Numbered from the stretch's first letter, positions 24,462 through 45,756 are shown. The stretch is DNA of 54,277 nt from Candidatus Nomurabacteria bacterium RIFCSPHIGHO2_01_FULL_41_71 (GCA_001785355.1 MFTQ01000020.1:1-54277); one strand, 5' to 3'. The notes: generated by a model from the sequence alone, not told the origin. Numbers and translations: made by a program.

Positions 24462-25072
24462 AGTTTATTTTAGGAACAAAAGTAAACATGACCGAATTTT
24501 TTTCCGAAAACGGAGAAGTTGTTCCCGTTACGGTGGTTTCTGCCGGACCGGTCGAGCTTCTGCGAATTTTTAAAAAAAAGAAAGACGGATATGATGCCGT
24601 GCAGATAGGGTTTCAAGCAGTTACGAAAGCGCGGGGAAAAAATAAAAAGAGCTACAAAATTCTGAAAGAATTTAAGCTCGGGCCTGCCGATATCTCAGAT
24701 GCGAAGATTGGGGATATAGTGGATGTTTCTATTTTTGCGCCGGGTGACAAAGTTCAAATTTCAAGTGTTTCCAAGGGCAAAGGATTTCAGGGTGTGGTCA
24801 AGCGCCATGGCTTTCATGGAGGACCCCGCACCCATGGCCAGAAACATTCCGAGCGGGAACCGGGGTCTATCGGCGGAGGGCTTCGCACCCATGTGCCGCG
24901 CGGTATGAGAATGGCGGGACGAATGGGAGGGGATCGGATTACTCAAAAAAATTTAAAAGTTATTTTAGTGGATAAAGAAAATAATTTAATGTTGATCAAG
25001 GGAGCAATCGCCGGTCGTCGCGGGACGTTGGTGGAAATGGTCAGTAAAGACAGCGCCTTAGGCACTGGCTAG
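24458..25072 (+). CDS. rplC: 50S ribosomal protein L3
   Basis: 204 aa with clear L3 sequence (FQGVVKRHGFHGGPRTHG); the last 7-8 codons lie inside a palindrome. Confidence 0.95.
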   Translation: MKFILGTKVNMTEFFSENGEVVPVTVVSAGPVELLRIFKKKKDGYDAVQIGFQAVTKARGKNKKSYKILKEFKLGPADISDAKIGDIVDVSIFAPGDKVQISSVSKGKGFQGVVKRHGFHGGPRTHGQKHSEREPGSIGGGLRTHVPRGMRMAGRMGGDRITQKNLKVILVDKENNLMLIKGAIAGRRGTLVEMVSKDSALGTG

Positions 25073-25092
25073 CCAGTGCCTAAGGCGCTGTC
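25049..25092. repeat. perfect 44-bp palindrome related to the RAYT-associated REP
   Basis: GACAGCGCCTTAGGCACTGGCT/AGCCAGTGCCTAAGGCGCTGTC. It shares the 16-mer AGCCAGTGCCTNAGGC with the hairpins at 44996, 45213 and 45700. Confidence 0.8.
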
Positions 25093-26084: not shown

Positions 26085-26924
26085 ATGAAAACATACAAAC
26101 CCACAAGTAAATCACGAAGACAAATGACCCATGTTTCTTATCGGGACGTTATTACTCGCATTTCTCCGGAAAAATCCCTGACTCATGGGTTAAGGAGATC
26201 GGTAGGAAGAAACAGCCAGGGACGCATCACCATGCGCCATAAAGGAGGTGGACACAAGCGCCTTTATCGGGAGGTGGATTTTTTATATAACAAAAAAGAA
26301 ATTCCGGCTAAAATAAAATCTGTCGAATATGACCCCAATCGTTCGGCTTTCATCGGGCTTGCGGTATATCGGGATGGAGAGAAGAGATATGTAATATTGC
26401 CAAAATCCATAAAGCCCGGAGACTCTTTTTTGGTATCCGACAAGGCGGAACTCAAGCCGGGGAACAGGCTTCCGCTTAAAAATATTCCGGTCGGGACTTT
26501 TGTCTACAATATAGAGCTTAAGCCCAGGGGCGGGGCGAAAATTGGGCGCGGAGCGGGCGTTTTCGCTCAAGTGGTGGCTAATGCCGAGGGCTATACCAAT
26601 ATAAAAATGCCTTCGTCGGAAATAAGGAAAATAAACGAAAATGCCTGGGCCTCGATCGGAGTGGTCTCAAACGAAGAATACCATTTGCAAAATTTCGGCA
26701 AGGCGGGCCGGAGCCGGTGGAAGGGAATTCGTCCGACCGTTCGCGGCACGGCCATGAATCCGGTGGACCATCCCTACGGAGGAGGCGAAGGCCGTCAGGG
26801 CCGGGGTACTAAGCGCCCGAAGACTATGTGGGGAAAAATTACCGGCGGACGCAAAACTCGCAGTCCGAAAAAGTATTCAAATGTTTTTATCGTTTCTCGC
26901 CGGGTAAAGAAGGGGAAGAAGTAA
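26085..26924 (+). CDS. rplB: 50S ribosomal protein L2
   Basis: Clear L2 sequence (GRNSQGRITMRHKGGGHKR, MNPVDHPYGGGEG). Start set to the ATG at 26085. Confidence 0.95.
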   Translation: MKTYKPTSKSRRQMTHVSYRDVITRISPEKSLTHGLRRSVGRNSQGRITMRHKGGGHKRLYREVDFLYNKKEIPAKIKSVEYDPNRSAFIGLAVYRDGEKRYVILPKSIKPGDSFLVSDKAELKPGNRLPLKNIPVGTFVYNIELKPRGGAKIGRGAGVFAQVVANAEGYTNIKMPSSEIRKINENAWASIGVVSNEEYHLQNFGKAGRSRWKGIRPTVRGTAMNPVDHPYGGGEGRQGRGTKRPKTMWGKITGGRKTRSPKKYSNVFIVSRRVKKGKK

Positions 26925-26980
26925 AAAAGGGAGGGCGCTGTACTTGTTGCGTAATATAAGTAGTATGGTATATTTTACTT

Positions 26981-27277
26981 ATGGCCATTCAAAAACATAC
27001 GAAAACCAATGTCCTAAATTTAACCTTAACAGTTCAAGTCTTTAAGGAAGGTAAATACTTTGTTTCCTACAATCCTGAACTAAAAGTTGCAAGTTGTGGC
27101 AAGAATATTGATGAAGCAAAGGAAAAATTAAAGGAAGCAATATCCGGCTTTTTGAAATCGGCCAAAGCGATGAATACCCTAGACGAAATAATGGAAGAAG
27201 CCGGCTTTTCTTATAAAAAGCATCAATGGTTTACCCCAGACCTTTTAGTTATGGATCGTCTGTCCTTGGCGTTTTAA
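26981..27277 (+). CDS. hicB: HicB-family antitoxin
   Basis: 98 aa with a UPF0150/HicB N-terminal fold pattern (VFKEGKYFVSYNPELKVASCGKNIDEAKEKLKEAI), followed 4 nt later by hicA. Confidence 0.75.
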   Translation: MAIQKHTKTNVLNLTLTVQVFKEGKYFVSYNPELKVASCGKNIDEAKEKLKEAISGFLKSAKAMNTLDEIMEEAGFSYKKHQWFTPDLLVMDRLSLAF

Positions 27278-27281
27278 TTTT

Positions 27282-27512
27282 ATGCCAAAAGTAACTCCGA
27301 TTCATTATAAAAAATTAGTGAAGGTTTTTGAATATTTGAATTTTCATTTTGATAGGCAAGAGGGTGATCATTTGATTTATGTTAAAAATGGAATAAAGAG
27401 ACCTGTGGTAATACCCATGTATGATGATGTGCCTGTTTTCATCATCAAAAATGATATAAAGTTAGCCGGTGTTTCGCGAAGCGAATACATGAAAATTTTA
27501 GCAAAAATTTAG
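27282..27512 (+). CDS. hicA: HicA-family mRNA interferase toxin
   Basis: 76 aa with a YcfA/HicA pattern (KKLVKVFEYLNFHFDRQEGDHLIY). Confidence 0.75.
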   Translation: MPKVTPIHYKKLVKVFEYLNFHFDRQEGDHLIYVKNGIKRPVVIPMYDDVPVFIIKNDIKLAGVSRSEYMKILAKI

Positions 27513-27523
27513 AATTTTTTTAA

Positions 27524-27649
27524 GGCCGGGGAACTAAATGGCCAAAAACAATGTGGGGCAAAGTAACCGGCGGCAGAAAAACCAGACGCCCCAAAAAGTA
27601 TTCAAATATTTTCATCGTTTCTCGCCGGGTAAAGAAGGGGAAGAAGTAA
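27524..27649 (+). pseudogene. second, diverged copy of the last 41 codons plus stop of rplB
   Basis: Codon-by-codon alignment with 26799-26924. 16 of 42 codons differ, 12 of them synonymously. The final 36 nt are identical and the frame is intact to the TAA. Confidence 0.85.
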
Positions 27650-27684
27650 AAAAAGAGAAATTAAAAATTAAACAGAATTTTCCT

Positions 27685-27722
27685 TGTCTACCGAAATGAA
27701 CATATGTTCATTTCGGTAGACA
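27685..27722. repeat. perfect 38-nt palindrome, copy 2 (TGTCTACCGAAATGAACATATGTTCATTTCGGTAGACA)
   Basis: Every position pairs. It is followed by TTTT on the + strand, so it may also act as a terminator for hicBA. Confidence 0.85.
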
Positions 27723-27885
27723 TTTTGAAATAAGACTTTTCCACATTTTGATTTGCGTTATGTGTAGATATTGGTAGTCTCTTAAATGGATCCGGCCCTT
27801 TCAGGGGTATCCCAGCCCCCGGCCGGGTCCAGAAGGAGATTATAGGATGTGTTGTAGGCGGCGCGCCCGTTCTAGGAACGGACGC

Positions 27886-27910
27886 AAAAAGGCGCTCCGA
27901 AAGGAGCGCC
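27886..27910 (-). terminator. intrinsic terminator (distal) for the 506-aa gene
   Basis: GGCGCTCC-TTTC-GGAGCGCC followed by TTTTT on the minus strand. Confidence 0.6.
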
Positions 27911-27932
27911 GCCGGCAACTTGGGCTGCCGGC

Positions 27933-27970
27933 AAAAAAAAGGCGGGGGGGGGCTAGCTAGACCCCCCGCC
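27933..27970 (-). terminator. intrinsic terminator (proximal) for the 506-aa gene
   Basis: GGCGGGGGG...CCCCCCGCC followed by T8 on the minus strand. Confidence 0.6.
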
Positions 27971-28098
27971 TCCTCCCGCCGGGCTGGCGCGTTCTAAGCT
28001 AGCCCCAAAATCCACGGCCGGGCCTCGACGCAAGTCGGGCCCGGCCATTCTATTTTTACCCCAACGGCTCATCTCCCGCCATTTGAGCCGTATGAAAT

Positions 28099-29619
28099 TT
28101 ATCCTCTTTTTGCCTGATTCGCCAGATATTCCGCAAGAAGCGCCCGCGCTCCGGCCGACTTCCTCAGCCATTCCGGAAATTGGGACATATTTGGGACGGA
28201 AATCTTGTTTGTTTTCAGGGCTTCTGTTGCCGCTCCGGCGGTGCCGACTACTTCCAACTGCTCGCTACCTCTTTTACTTGTTGTCATTTTTATAAGTACC
28301 ACCCCCGGCATCATTCTTGTTGTTTTTTTCTTTCCCTCTCTTTCCACTACCGGCACATTTACCTCAAAACCGCCTTTTTCGATCAGGCTCTTTATCTCCT
28401 CCGTCACTTTTCCTTTTTTTTCCGAATCGGGAGCGCGTCCCGGAGCTTTCTCCGCTCCGGCAGCAGAGCCGTCTTTCTTTTTTTCTCCTGATTTTTTCTT
28501 GGCAAACATGTATTCTTCTCCGTTGCCGAGTAACTGGCGGAGAATCTGCTGGCCGGTAATCGCCCGCCCCAACTCTTCCAGAAGTTTTTTCATAGACTCG
28601 TCTTCCTCTTTTACTCCGGCATCCAAAGCTTCCCGTTCCGGTTTTTTCTTATCTTGAAGAAAGCTAAGAGTTTGACCGTAATGCACCCCCATCATCATCC
28701 AGGGAGCCACTTCGTTTTCTTTAATTTTTTTGTCCCGATACGCTTCCGCCAATTTTTTTCTTATTTCTTCAAAAATTCCGGGAGTTTTCCCCTGTTCGCC
28801 AAGGGCTGATTTTAGCTTAGTCTCAATATCTTGGTCATCTATTACTTCTTTGATTTTTTTAAAGGCCCTGTTTTGCCGGCTCCGGACGGATTTGAGATCC
28901 GGGATAAACTTTGCTTGGAGGAGTTTTAGCCTTCCTTCTTTTAAAACTTTGGCCGCCGCCGTCCGCTTTTCCGCCTCTCTGGCTTCGATATATCCGAGAA
29001 CTCGGGGATTTGCTTCTATCTCCCGGATCGTCGCTTCGGTCTCTTCGGTTCTTCGTTTGTAAACCGCCAGGGTCCTTTCGATTATTTCTCCCCGCCGGGT
29101 TGAAATTCTATTTTGTTCTTCCAATATTCTTCTCTTTATTTCCTCTCGGAATTTTTCTCGAATGGTAAAAAGTTTAGCCAATGTTTGAGCTTCATCAGGG
29201 GATAGACTTTTTATGCTCTGGAATCTATACAGGACTGTGTCCATATTTTCCAAAATTCTTTTTTGAAGCGGATCTTTCGAATCGCGATCGATTATTTTTT
29301 CTTCTGCCAGGGCTCCATAGTCTCCCGGATTCAGATTTTCCATCGGAGACAATTGCCCGAGCCACTTCAAATATTCTTCGAAGGCACGCAGATACCTGAG
29401 CTGTTCTACTTGTTTTTCCCTCTCATTCACCCTTTTCCCTATTTCTTCTTCGGTGACCAGAGCTTCGGTCGCCATCTTATCCGCCTCTTTCAGTAAATCT
29501 CCCATTTCTTCGGGACTTGGGAAGGAGAACGTTTCTTCTTGCGGAACATCATTATTTTGTTTATTTTCCACCGGGGGCTCATTTGGTTTGGGTATATTGG
29601 AATTTATTCCTTCATTCAT
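28099..29619 (-). CDS. hypothetical 506-aa charged, coiled-coil-rich protein (orphan), antisense to the ribosomal operon
   Basis: Long ORF with its own promoter and terminators. No catalytic, TM or nucleic-acid-binding motif recognised by eye. Confidence 0.7.
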   Translation of the reverse strand: MNEGINSNIPKPNEPPVENKQNNDVPQEETFSFPSPEEMGDLLKEADKMATEALVTEEEIGKRVNEREKQVEQLRYLRAFEEYLKWLGQLSPMENLNPGDYGALAEEKIIDRDSKDPLQKRILENMDTVLYRFQSIKSLSPDEAQTLAKLFTIREKFREEIKRRILEEQNRISTRRGEIIERTLAVYKRRTEETEATIREIEANPRVLGYIEAREAEKRTAAAKVLKEGRLKLLQAKFIPDLKSVRSRQNRAFKKIKEVIDDQDIETKLKSALGEQGKTPGIFEEIRKKLAEAYRDKKIKENEVAPWMMMGVHYGQTLSFLQDKKKPEREALDAGVKEEDESMKKLLEELGRAITGQQILRQLLGNGEEYMFAKKKSGEKKKDGSAAGAEKAPGRAPDSEKKGKVTEEIKSLIEKGGFEVNVPVVEREGKKKTTRMMPGVVLIKMTTSKRGSEQLEVVGTAGAATEALKTNKISVPNMSQFPEWLRKSAGARALLAEYLANQAKRG

Positions 29620-29747: not shown

Positions 29748-30098
29748 ATGACCAGAAGCATAAAAAAAGGGATGTATGTTGATGAACGGCTCCTGAAAAA
29801 GGTTGCCGGCAAAAATCCGCTTCAAACCCCCATGATCAAGACTTGGAATCGGGCTTCAGTGGTGTCCCCGGAGATGCTCGGTTTTATCTTCGGCGTTTAT
29901 AACGGTAAGACGCATGTGGAAGTGTTGGTCACGGAGGACATGGTGGGTCACAGACTGGGAGAATTTTCCCCAACCAAGAAATTTATTAAGCATGGCGGAA
30001 AGATGCAGAAAGAACTCGAGCAGAAAAAGAAAGAGGCCGAAATAGCGGCCGCCCAGGGAGCGAAAGCCGCCGCGACGGATGCCAAGGGAACGAAATAG
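29748..30098 (+). CDS. rpsS: 30S ribosomal protein S19 with C-terminal Lys/Ala-rich extension
   Basis: S19 core (GKTHVEVLVTEDMVGHRLGEFSPTKKF) plus a tail of about 25 aa. Confidence 0.93.
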   Translation: MTRSIKKGMYVDERLLKKVAGKNPLQTPMIKTWNRASVVSPEMLGFIFGVYNGKTHVEVLVTEDMVGHRLGEFSPTKKFIKHGGKMQKELEQKKKEAEIAAAQGAKAAATDAKGTK

Positions 30099-33156: not shown

Positions 33157-33192
33157 AATTATTAAAACACCCCTCGGGGATTTTTTATTTAT

Positions 33193-33221
33193 TTGACTAT
33201 TTTGCCCTGTTTTGCTAGCAT
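33193..33221 (+). promoter_or_regulatory. internal promoter TTGACT-N17-TAGCAT upstream of rpsN
   Basis: TTGACT at 33193-33198 and TAGCAT at 33216-33221, giving a leader of about 95 nt to the rpsN ATG. Confidence 0.45.
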
Positions 33222-33323
33222 GTGAATGCCTCGAGACAGGCTGATCCGTGTTTCTTCTTAAGGCTTGAAAGCAGGTTTTAAGAAAAAATACGCGATATCA
33301 CCTCTTGAAAATGGCATTTTCAC

Positions 33324-33509
33324 ATGGCAAAAACATCCGTAGTGGCGAGATCAAAAAAGAAACCGAAATTTTCCACCCGACGTAAGAATCGATGTTTTCG
33401 GTGTGGTCGAGGAAATGCCTTTATGCGGGATTTCGGCATTTGTCGCATTTGTTTTAGAGAGCTTGCCAATGAAGGAATGCTTCCCGGAGTTCGAAAATCA
33501 AGTTGGTAG
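33324..33509 (+). CDS. rpsN: 30S ribosomal protein S14, zinc-binding type Z
   Basis: 61 aa with CFRCGR...CRIC. Confidence 0.92.
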   Translation: MAKTSVVARSKKKPKFSTRRKNRCFRCGRGNAFMRDFGICRICFRELANEGMLPGVRKSSW

Positions 33510-44995: not shown

Positions 44996-45032
44996 TGCCC
45001 ACAGCCAGTGCCTCAGGCACTGGCTGTGGGCA
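44996..45032. repeat. REP hairpin, 5' flank of RAYT (17-bp stem)
   Basis: TGCCCACAGCCAGTGCC-TCA-GGCACTGGCTGTGGGCA. Confidence 0.85.
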
Positions 45033-45048
45033 GTGCTATACTTGCACT

Positions 45049-45723
45049 ATGAGAAAGCAACCAATTATAACAGGTGAATATTATCACATATATAATCGTG
45101 GTGTAGATAAGCGAGATATTTTTAAAAACAAAAAAGATATTGATCGTTTCTTTGAGAGTATAATTGAATTTAATCAAACTGAAATTATAGGGAGCATACG
45201 AGATGTAAGAAAGCATCAACCAGTGCCTCAGGCACTGGCTGATGCCACTAAAGATCCATTAGTTTCTTTTGTGGTATATTGTTTAAATCCTAATCATTTT
45301 CATTTTGTTTTGAAGCAGTTAGTGGACGGTGGAATAGCCAAGTTTATGCAAAAACTGCAAGCAGGGTACACTTATTATTTTAATGTCAAGTATTCTCGCA
45401 CTGGATCTCTTTTCCAAGGACCTTTTAAATCACAAGTTATGGCTAGTGAAAATTATTTTAACAAAATTCTTGGATATGTGAATAAAAATTACAAAGTTCA
45501 TTATATTCCAAAAAATAAATCTCATCTTGTCTATGCTAGCGACTATGAATATGAGAATAATAATTTGAAAATTGTTTCAAAAGAAGAAGGAAAAAGATTT
45601 TTGAACATTTTCAGTGGTAATAAGAATTTCAAAAAACACTGCGAAGAAATTATTGATATTATAAGAGCAGAAAGAGGAAGGGTTTCTCTTTTAGAAAAAG
45701 ATGCTCCCCCAGCCAGTGCCTGA
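45049..45723 (+). CDS. REP-associated tyrosine transposase (RAYT; IS200-like Y1/HUH)
   Basis: YHIYNRG N-terminus and HUH motif (NHFHFVL), with downstream Tyr-containing region YTYYFNVKYSRTGSLFQGPFKS. Start set to the ATG at 45049, 6 nt after TGcTATACT. Confidence 0.75.
   Translation: MRKQPIITGEYYHIYNRGVDKRDIFKNKKDIDRFFESIIEFNQTEIIGSIRDVRKHQPVPQALADATKDPLVSFVVYCLNPNHFHFVLKQLVDGGIAKFMQKLQAGYTYYFNVKYSRTGSLFQGPFKSQVMASENYFNKILGYVNKNYKVHYIPKNKSHLVYASDYEYENNNLKIVSKEEGKRFLNIFSGNKNFKKHCEEIIDIIRAERGRVSLLEKDAPPASA
45213..45245. repeat. REP hairpin copy inside the RAYT coding sequence
   Basis: GCATCAACCAGTGCC-TCA-GGCACTGGCTGATGC (one mismatch). In frame, it encodes ...HQPVPQALADA... Confidence 0.8.
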
Positions 45724-45744
45724 GGCACTGGCTGGGGGAGCATC
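45700..45744. repeat. REP hairpin, 3' flank of RAYT (21-bp stem)
   Basis: GATGCTCCCCCAGCCAGTGCC-TGA-GGCACTGGCTGGGGGAGCATC. The RAYT stop codon is the TGA loop. Confidence 0.85.
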
Positions 45745-45756
45745 TAATATAATTTT

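Follow-up and report, generated by a model that had tools for sequence, protein, structure and literature searches.

What is a block of seven very stable, G+C-rich hairpins doing inside the S10 ribosomal-protein operon? This question was raised by R2 (27787-28058), an element located between rplB (L2, 26070-26924) and rpsS (S19, 29748-30098) in a stretch of 54,277 nt from Candidatus Nomurabacteria bacterium RIFCSPHIGHO2_01_FULL_41_71 (MFTQ01000020.1:1-54277), hereafter termed the window. A preliminary description had presented R2, together with a second block R1 (393-690), as arrays of hairpins. Comparison with related genomes indicated that R2 is most likely a small stand-alone gene, transcribed from the plus strand as a unit of about 270 nt. 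In our favored reading, to which we assign a probability of roughly 0.5, this unit encodes an arginine-rich peptide of 37 amino acids (aa) in a hyper-structured mRNA or in an RNA of dual function.

R2 follows a promoter conserved at the rplB-rpsS locus

About 150 loci from genomes and metagenomes were retrieved with L2 and compared (loci are cited by L numbers). The closest L2 match among species-representative genomes reached 87%, and the lineage was Candidatus Nomurabacteria (Paceibacteria, Candidate Phyla Radiation, CPR). The gap between rplB and rpsS measured 3-50 nt in ordinary bacteria, whereas in Nomurabacteria and their relatives it ranged from 70 to 4400 nt and was different in every species. 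When the spacers were compared all against all by BLAST, only three elements could be aligned, namely the terminator of rplB, the promoter with the leader of rpsS, and a second promoter just behind the rplB terminator. In the window, this second promoter stands before R2. The unit that it opens contains the following features, including a Shine-Dalgarno (SD) sequence and an open reading frame (ORF):

27685-27722, plus strand: old rplB terminator, formed by a perfect palindrome of 38 nt with TTTT behind it, which is the left border of the R2 unit
27753-27780, plus strand: R2 promoter, with the -35 element TTGCGT (27753-27758), a 16-nt spacer and the extended -10 element TGGTAGTCT (27772-27780)
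27787-27831, plus strand: H1, the 5'-terminal stem-loop, with an 11-bp outer stem including one U.G pair and an inner GGGG/CCCC hairpin
27833-27838, plus strand: SD sequence AAGGAG, predicted to be unpaired, 8 nt before the ATG
27847-27960, plus strand: 37-codon ORF MCCRRRARSRNGRKKALRKERRRQLGLPAKKRRGGAS, with 17 lysine or arginine (K/R) and one D/E residue and with A8 and G9 runs shortly before the stop codon
27863-27885, plus strand: H2, with 10 pairs and one C.A mismatch that becomes G.U on the minus strand
27891-27910, both strands: H3, a perfect 8-bp stem with a GAAA loop (27899-27902) on the plus strand, terminator-like on the minus strand, where T5 follows
27911-27932, with an A8 run to 27940, plus strand: H4, a GCCGGCA/TGCCGGC stem followed by the A8 run
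27941-27970, both strands: H5, with arms GGCGGGGGG and CCCCCCGCC and the center CTAGCTAG, followed by T8 on the minus strand
27997-28006, plus strand: copy of the H5 3' arm, able to form an alternative 10-bp pairing with 27949-27958
28016-28057, plus strand: H7, the terminal hairpin (stem 28016-28046, 13 bp, bulged U, GCAA loop at 28030-28033) and its tail ATTCTATTTTT, together an intrinsic terminator

The R2 promoter aligned column for column with the sequence TTGC(A/C)TTATTT-N-TG(T/G)TATAAT of relatives (L009, L091, L089, L014, L096, L100, L101, L011, and L015). It was weaker than the promoters of these relatives and gave no match in a consensus promoter scan. The alignment sets R2 on the plus strand and places the predicted transcription start at about 27785-27788, at the foot of H1. 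The G+C content was 0.32 in the promoter versus 0.67 in the body, and the G+C-rich part extended exactly from the predicted start to the terminator.

In the relatives, the units at this position share one layout, consisting of a 5' stem-loop, an SD sequence, a start codon, an ORF of 20-83 codons and a strong terminator (L009, L089, L091, L100, L101, L011, L015, L014, L096, and L007), and a terminator hairpin occupies the equivalent position after rplB. R2 likewise carries the conserved promoter right after the rplB terminator and then the 5' hairpin, SD sequence, start codon, basic ORF and terminator in this order, and this common layout indicates a plus-strand transcription unit. The register of the 5' hairpin was alike in R2, L009, L089, and L091 (GGA...UCC, then AGAA(A)GG), with an inner stem that was specific to each species. 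The units of L007, L009, L014, and L096 were also G+C-rich relative to their own genomes. Homology of the ORF or of the RNA body among the units of the locus was not demonstrable by spacer BLAST or by hidden Markov models (HMMs) of the peptides, in which most members scored no better than shuffles. The preliminary description had seen support for the plus strand in the GAAA loop and the U-G pair; this orientation stands on the cross-species promoter and the plus-strand terminator, and not on the GNRA loops. The fold, with equal energies on the two strands, gives no strand preference.

The SD-led frame is basic in R2 and at the locus as a whole

The SD sequence and the arginine-rich frame had already been noted, and both were found as described. 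Strict SD-ATG pairs were rare away from true gene starts, with four on the mostly antisense minus strand of the whole 54 kb, and R1 and R2 each carried one at the 5' end. The R2 peptide would have a net charge of +16. This basicity is specific to the frame led by the SD sequence, which holds 17 K+R residues versus 7 and 7 in the other two plus-strand frames, the most extreme case among the units of the locus. Of 11 units of the locus, 9 had their highest K+R count in the SD-led frame among the three frames of that strand, and one more had a tie (binomial p ~1e-3 under equal chances). The unit of L007 showed in addition a clear coding signature, with a G+C content at third codon positions (GC3) of 0.91. 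The SD-ATG pair, which the preliminary description had mentioned only in passing, is the feature common to the units found at this position in relatives. Since an SD-led basic frame is shared at the locus, a small-protein mRNA or dual-function RNA fits R2 better than a purely noncoding RNA.

Two further approaches were not informative. Codon usage did not discriminate when the R2 ORF was compared with host genes, and a loose census of SD-led ORFs on both strands of the spacers returned too many false ORFs. As a separate observation, the two overlapping ORFs of L007 lie with their GC3 of 0.91 in a genome of 45% G+C, which suggests that they were acquired from a high-G+C source.

R2 is extreme in composition and folding

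The G+C content of R2 was 0.647, and 0.643 over 27781-28080, compared with 0.34 in the 300 nt on its left, 0.50 in the right flank and a mean of 0.42 over the window. Values near 0.7 were reached within the window by R1 and R2 only. The predicted fold of the plus strand had an energy of -158 to -161 kcal/mol (z = -6.9 to -7.9) and that of the minus strand -159 to -162 kcal/mol (z = -5.9 to -7.4), and none of the dinucleotide shuffles reached these energies. The block of about 270 nt and 64% G+C reported earlier was therefore confirmed, with z near -7 on both strands. After regression of fold energy on G+C content, R1, R2, and the segment 45631-45810, which is flanked by repetitive extragenic palindromic (REP) sequences, were among the strongest outliers of the window. 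Per nucleotide, R2 and R1 folded with -0.58 and -0.66 kcal/mol, whereas the best value elsewhere in about 74 kb of the species and about 1.2 Mb of relatives was about -0.47. The same window-wide scan also found a locally over-structured region at 33181-33330 (fold residual z ~-4 at 41% G+C).

The individual hairpins, the GAAA and GCAA loops and the U.G pair of H1 were all found where they had been reported. H2 does fit the minus strand better, as the C.A mismatch of the plus strand corresponds to a G.U pair on the other strand. The 3' arm of H5, AGCTAGACCC, recurs as AGCTAGCCCC 42 nt downstream. Because of this duplication, 27949-27958 and 27997-28006 are complementary at 10 of 10 positions, so that the pairing between the loop of H5 and 27997-28006 seen in the preliminary description is real, in the form of an alternative arm. 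Finally, a 7-bp clamp was predicted to join the 3' tail (28047-28053) to the region of the AUG (27843-27849).

R2 is reproducible across independent assemblies

The same locus was retrieved from other assemblies by means of the neighboring gene for a 506-aa protein and of HicA. The block and both of its junctions were identical in at least four assemblies (the window, L001, L176, and L177) that came from different samples and assemblers. Contigs of the organism occurred in ERZ27254752, ERZ27254767, JGI 3300002502, and SRR3989344, with groundwater of the Rifle type as the source. A misassembly or chimera was ruled out by these junctions, and the earlier concern that R2 could be a foreign fragment joined by misassembly did not hold. 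Only two sites of R2 varied across the four assemblies, 27833 (A/G) and 27952 (G/T), compared with 0.1 expected in 272 nt at the background rate. Both single-nucleotide polymorphisms (SNPs) were neutral for the structure, and the G allele at 27833 retained the GGAG of the SD sequence. Many other contigs ended, carried Ns or entered poly-G/poly-C noise within R2 at the G9 run of H5, which is also the site of the SNP at 27952. R2 is hard to assemble, yet it is not a chimera. The breakage, located at 27941-27952 of the window and seen in L002 and L178-L183, fragments the ribosomal marker operon of the species.

A model for R2 and the points that weigh against it

In the favored reading, the sigma-70-type promoter (27753-27780), which is conserved across Nomurabacteria at this locus, would start the RNA at the foot of H1, and H1 would probably shield the RNA from decay that depends on the 5' end. 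The exposed SD sequence and AUG would then open the arginine-rich frame, and the RNA would run on through the chain of very stable hairpins to the intrinsic terminator at 28016-28057. Read on the other strand, two of these hairpins would terminate the convergent 506-aa gene, and the two transcripts would probably overlap in antisense. R2 would thus be the local version of a fast-evolving, species-specific gene for a small basic peptide in the hypervariable slot between rplB and rpsS. For the peptide, a role in binding nucleic acids or the ribosome is a guess.

Several observations weigh against this interpretation. The G+C content of the R2 ORF is flat over the three codon positions (0.62/0.68/0.65), with no periodicity, and by calculation chance would be expected to leave a frame of 37 codons open at 65% G+C. 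Very stable hairpins and zero-loop palindromes fill the ORF, an unusual feature in coding sequence. The R2 peptide had no match in Pfam or NCBIfam, and an HMMER search of 1.8 billion representatives returned a single low-complexity match. The ORF of L009 was absent from the protein collection, and the search with its peptide remained without matches. The peptides of the locus resemble each other in composition and not in order, as leave-one-out HMMs compared with shuffles gave p values of 0.04-0.98 (0.05 for R2). Moreover, the R2 promoter is degenerate relative to those of relatives, and the unit could be decaying.

In a more far-reaching version of the favored reading, a conserved promoter in the middle of the S10 operon would drive a rapidly diversifying family of Arg/Lys-rich micro-proteins in Nomurabacteria, here carried by a hyper-stable, G+C-rich RNA whose GNRA-capped hairpins would be bound by its own peptide. 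The resulting self-contained RNA-peptide particle would act on the ribosome, on transcription (a NusG-domain protein being encoded nearby) or on another cell, either a host or a competitor, and R1 would be a second, independently arisen hyper-structured coding RNA. We regard this version as improbable.

R2 matches no described RNA or protein family

A scan of the window with Rfam 15 at gathering thresholds found only a tmRNA and two tRNAs, and a permissive scan of 27400-28400 returned chance matches below threshold, the best with 25 bits against a threshold of 74. ARAGORN found nothing in R2. A known RNA family was excluded by these scans. Exact patterns of the R2 hairpins had no match in species-representative genomes or viral contigs, R2 found nothing by blastn and nhmmer in 1.57 Mb of related loci, and BLAST against phage and plasmid collections was negative as well. 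The R2 peptide and ten peptides from the same locus matched no ribosomal (bL34, bL36, bS21, etc.) or other family at E values up to 10. Searches of the peptides and the 506-aa protein with PADLOC and PHROGs were negative, HicA/HicB being all that was found, and a defense or phage module was excluded on these null results. The target of a diversity-generating retroelement was also rejected, with no second copy of R1 or R2 in the window and no reverse transcriptase domain among the neighbors examined. A literature search for G+C-rich hairpin RNAs or arginine-rich small proteins of CPR bacteria turned up nothing relevant. R2 accordingly belongs to no described RNA or protein family and is specific to its species; it is not demonstrably a new class.

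A purely noncoding RNA and the comparison with R1

The alternative that survives best is a structured small RNA of the plus strand without any coding role, in which the SD sequence, ATG and ORF would be leftovers or coincidence and the chain of hairpins would be functional, for example as a scaffold or decoy for proteins. The fold of R2 (z about -7 to -8) lies far beyond that of the islands which relatives carry at this locus (z -1.4 to -6.3), and the exact coincidence of the G+C-rich block with the transcribed part, the GAAA and GCAA loops of the plus strand and the missing codon periodicity all agree with such an RNA. Yet the body of R2 has neither a homolog nor covariation, being represented by one sequence with two SNPs, and it matches no Rfam family; its fold, equal on both strands, carries no signal specific to RNA. 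What the locus keeps across species is the promoter, the 5' hairpin, the SD sequence and start, and a basic frame, but no RNA body. We consider this alternative clearly less likely than the favored reading, but a serious competitor.

Its remaining support comes from R1, where there is good evidence that the RNA structure is under selection. Two alleles of R1 differed at 10 sites and by an in-frame 3-nt indel within 180 nt, whereas about 10 kb around them were almost identical. All of these changes fell in loops or linkers, or converted Watson-Crick pairs of stems into G.U pairs on the plus strand only, and the fold of the R1 plus strand surpassed that of the minus strand by 26-33 kcal/mol. It is on these two grounds, changes that spare the plus-strand fold and a better fold of this strand, that selection on the structure is proposed. 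Five of the seven codon changes were non-synonymous, so that R1 shows no sign of constraint at the protein level.

R1 and R2 have no sequence in common, as the preliminary description had remarked. R1 possesses a promoter of its own and lacks a 5' hairpin; its SD sequence is paired with codons 2-4, its AUG lies in a loop, and its ORF of 73 aa is acidic. It stands between co-directional genes and has no T-runs on the minus strand. Neither about 74 kb of the species nor about 1.2 Mb of relatives yielded another island of the R1/R2 type. There was likewise none in 10 kb beyond the start of the window, where one candidate proved to be a tRNA, and an island of L006 was a tRNA cluster. At the R1 locus itself, 23 related species had no G+C island upstream of the VKOR gene. 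The grouping of R1 and R2 as one RNA family was thus not supported, while their description as blocks of the same style was.

The convergent gene and the two strands of R2

On the right, R2 is followed by a gene that runs toward it:

28099-29619, minus strand: convergent orphan gene for a 506-aa protein, with a weak match to the N-terminal domain of NusG at residues 401-458

This gene has no good terminator before R2, and the nearest ones lie inside R2. Three of the seven R2 hairpins qualified as intrinsic terminators, one on the plus strand (28016-28046, followed by ATTCTATTTTT) and two on the minus strand (27910-27891 followed by T5, and 27970-27941 followed by T8, the latter a strong one for the 506-aa gene). 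H3 with T5 was obtained from a scan, and H5 with T8 was read directly in the sequence. On the plus strand, a U-run follows only the last hairpin (28016-28046). The 506-aa transcript therefore most likely extends 130-200 nt into R2 in antisense, and mutual interference of the two transcripts is plausible. An antisense overlap of R2 with the 3' end of the 506-aa gene and the double role of two hairpins as minus-strand terminators had both been claimed before; the terminators were recovered at 27941-27970 and 27891-27910, and their position inside R2 makes the overlap plausible. This arrangement explains why R2 seems to be readable on two strands, as H3 and H5 act as terminators on the minus strand, and the entry of the 506-aa transcript in antisense accounts for the equal folding of both.

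Two alternatives give more weight to this antisense arrangement. R2 could be a toxin module with a basic peptide, similar to type I toxin-antitoxin systems, in which a stable, tightly folded mRNA for a harmful arginine-rich peptide would be restrained by its own fold together with an antisense RNA, or with the antisense 3' end of the 506-aa transcript. The stable 5' hairpin with the predicted 7-bp clamp and the internal terminators that could end an antisense RNA would suit such a module, as would the pairing of the SD sequence with codons 2-4 in R1; species-specific, fast-evolving small ORFs are, from general knowledge, typical of these systems. However, the R2 peptide, with 17 K/R of 37 residues, has no hydrophobic stretch or membrane helix, unlike nearly all type I toxins, the prediction leaves the SD sequence of R2 free, the minus strand shows no convincing promoter but just a lone TAGAAT at 28052-28047, and the units of relatives occur without a convergent gene. 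A toxin module is therefore improbable.

We judge it no more probable that R2 is mainly a bidirectional stack of terminators, or an insulator, between the genes on the rplB side and the 506-aa gene, with no product of its own. Although its position between convergent genes, the assignment of H7 to the plus strand and of H3 (T5) and H5 (T8) to the minus strand and the equal fold energies of the strands are what such a stack would show, seven hairpins in 270 nt go far beyond the needs of termination, and a stack would have no use for a conserved promoter, an SD sequence and an ATG of its own. R1, which is built in the same style, lies between co-directional genes and lacks minus-strand T-runs. 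Since relatives carry equivalent units without a convergent gene, termination is not the whole story.

The 506-aa gene was ruled out as a guide to R2, as it is an orphan. Its protein had a single distant homolog (P0002, 24% identity), which is encoded in another context, beside a pseudouridine synthase gene and rplS, with no R2-like neighbor. In the context of P0002, the species of the window carries an unannotated gene for a 568-aa protein, which may be a paralog of the 506-aa gene; besides the window, L208 (97-1803) and L006 (6639-8216) are the loci concerned.

Palindromes and the transposase of the window

The weakest alternative, that R2 is selfish or foreign DNA, either palindromes of the REP/BIME type (BIME, bacterial interspersed mosaic element) spread by the Y1 transposase of the window (45049-45723) or a recently acquired G+C-rich fragment, is very improbable, since the REP core CCAGTGCCTSAGGCACTGG occurs in neither R1 nor R2 even with 3 mismatches allowed, the hairpins of R1 and R2 are all mutually different and have no second copy in the window, nothing matched in phages, plasmids, viral contigs or species-representative genomes, and the block is bordered by a native promoter and terminator instead of repeats or target duplications, even though R1 and R2 are rich in perfect palindromes, the genome has a Y1 transposase gene flanked by such G+C-rich palindromes with diverged copies elsewhere, R1 is a hotspot of strain-level variation and R2 has two variable sites where about 0.1 would be expected. 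A REP/BIME cluster was rejected on the same absence of the core and of recurring hairpins.

The transposase region was recorded in its own right. At 44996-45745, a gene similar to those of REP-associated tyrosine transposases (RAYT) and IS200 (45049-45723; Pfam Y1_Tnp, E = 1.3e-5) has perfect G+C-rich palindromes on its flanks and also within it; their core CCAGTGCCTSAGGCACTGG lies at 45005, 45220, and 45713. Between rplC and rplD, two diverged copies are arranged as an inverted pair (25050-25091, at 25050/25073). Transposase and palindromes together look like a REPtron in a CPR genome.

Genomic setting of the rplB-rpsS slot

The insert between rplB and rpsS contains, from left to right, a hicB-like gene, hicA, the old rplB terminator, R2 and the convergent 506-aa gene. 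The hicB-like gene (98 aa) and hicA (76 aa) directly follow rplB (26981-27699) and arrived together with an 84%-identical copy of the last 130 nt of rplB (26799-26928 compared with 27524-27653). The apparent ORF of 53 aa at 27538-27699 is the displaced original 3' end of rplB. In relatives, the hypervariable spacers (L007, L008, L009, L014, L089, L090, L091, L096, and others) hold one or two small promoter-ORF-terminator units that differ by species.

Throughout the clade (L007-L015 and L089-L104; 29669-29725 in the window), rpsS is preceded by a strongly conserved promoter of its own (TTGACATTTT..ATTTGCTAnTAT), by which the S10 operon is split after rplB. The rpsS leader carries a conserved hairpin, AAGCTCG-N4-GAGCTT, followed by a T-run, which may be an attenuator or a site of autoregulation by a ribosomal protein.

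Comparison with known systems

To our knowledge, CPR bacteria, with their tiny genomes, have almost no described small RNAs or micro-proteins. The present analysis defines a reproducible locus, within the most conserved operon of the cell, where the small basic ORF or structured RNA behind a conserved promoter changes from species to species, and this pattern is new at the level of the locus. If the products are real, they would form a fast-evolving layer of CPR biology overlooked by standard annotation, with ribosome or nucleic-acid binding or host interaction as candidate roles. On the practical side, R2 breaks many metagenome assemblies inside a marker-gene operon on which CPR phylogeny and binning widely rely.

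Among known elements, REP/BIME sequences with RAYT share with R2 the G+C-rich palindromes between convergent genes and the capacity for termination, and the window has a RAYT-like gene with REPs of its own. REPs, however, are many copies of one consensus, whereas each R2 hairpin is unique and none has the local core. The mRNAs of type I toxins (hok, tisB, fst) resemble R2 as compact, highly folded, lineage-specific messages for peptides below 60 aa, with a possible 5'-3' clamp and antisense overlap, but the R2 peptide is extremely hydrophilic and basic, with no membrane helix, and no antitoxin RNA gene was identified. The N-boxB system of phages lambda and P22 may offer a lead, in that a short arginine-rich peptide (..ALRKERRRQL..) would be found beside GNRA-capped G+C stems, with a NusG-domain protein adjacent; the likeness is compositional only, with no nut-site context and no phage.

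In A+T-rich genomes, G+C islands reportedly mark structural RNA genes (work of Klein, Misulovin and Eddy in 2002), a signal known for hyperthermophiles and conserved RNAs. R2 is like these islands in its sharp coincidence with a predicted transcribed and strongly folded unit, and unlike them in that the organism comes from groundwater metagenomes, the RNA lacks conservation and the tmRNA of the window is not G+C-rich.

Within their genera, the dual-function small RNAs SgrS/SgrT, RNAIII/hld, and SR1/SR1P are conserved, and the targets with which they base-pair are known. R2 differs from them by its restriction to one species, its 65% G+C in a 42% genome, its low-complexity arginine-rich peptide and the lack of an identified target or seed, but corresponds to them as a short, separate and heavily structured transcript that has a promoter and an intrinsic terminator to itself and carries a short ORF behind a good SD sequence. 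Finally, the stabilizing leaders of ompA, ermC, and aprE have, like R2, a stable hairpin a few nucleotides from the 5' end (predicted in R2), followed by an accessible ribosome-binding site. The same arrangement appears to be kept in several relatives, each with a different inner stem, and would be consistent with a stabilizing role of the 5' hairpin behind the predicted start.

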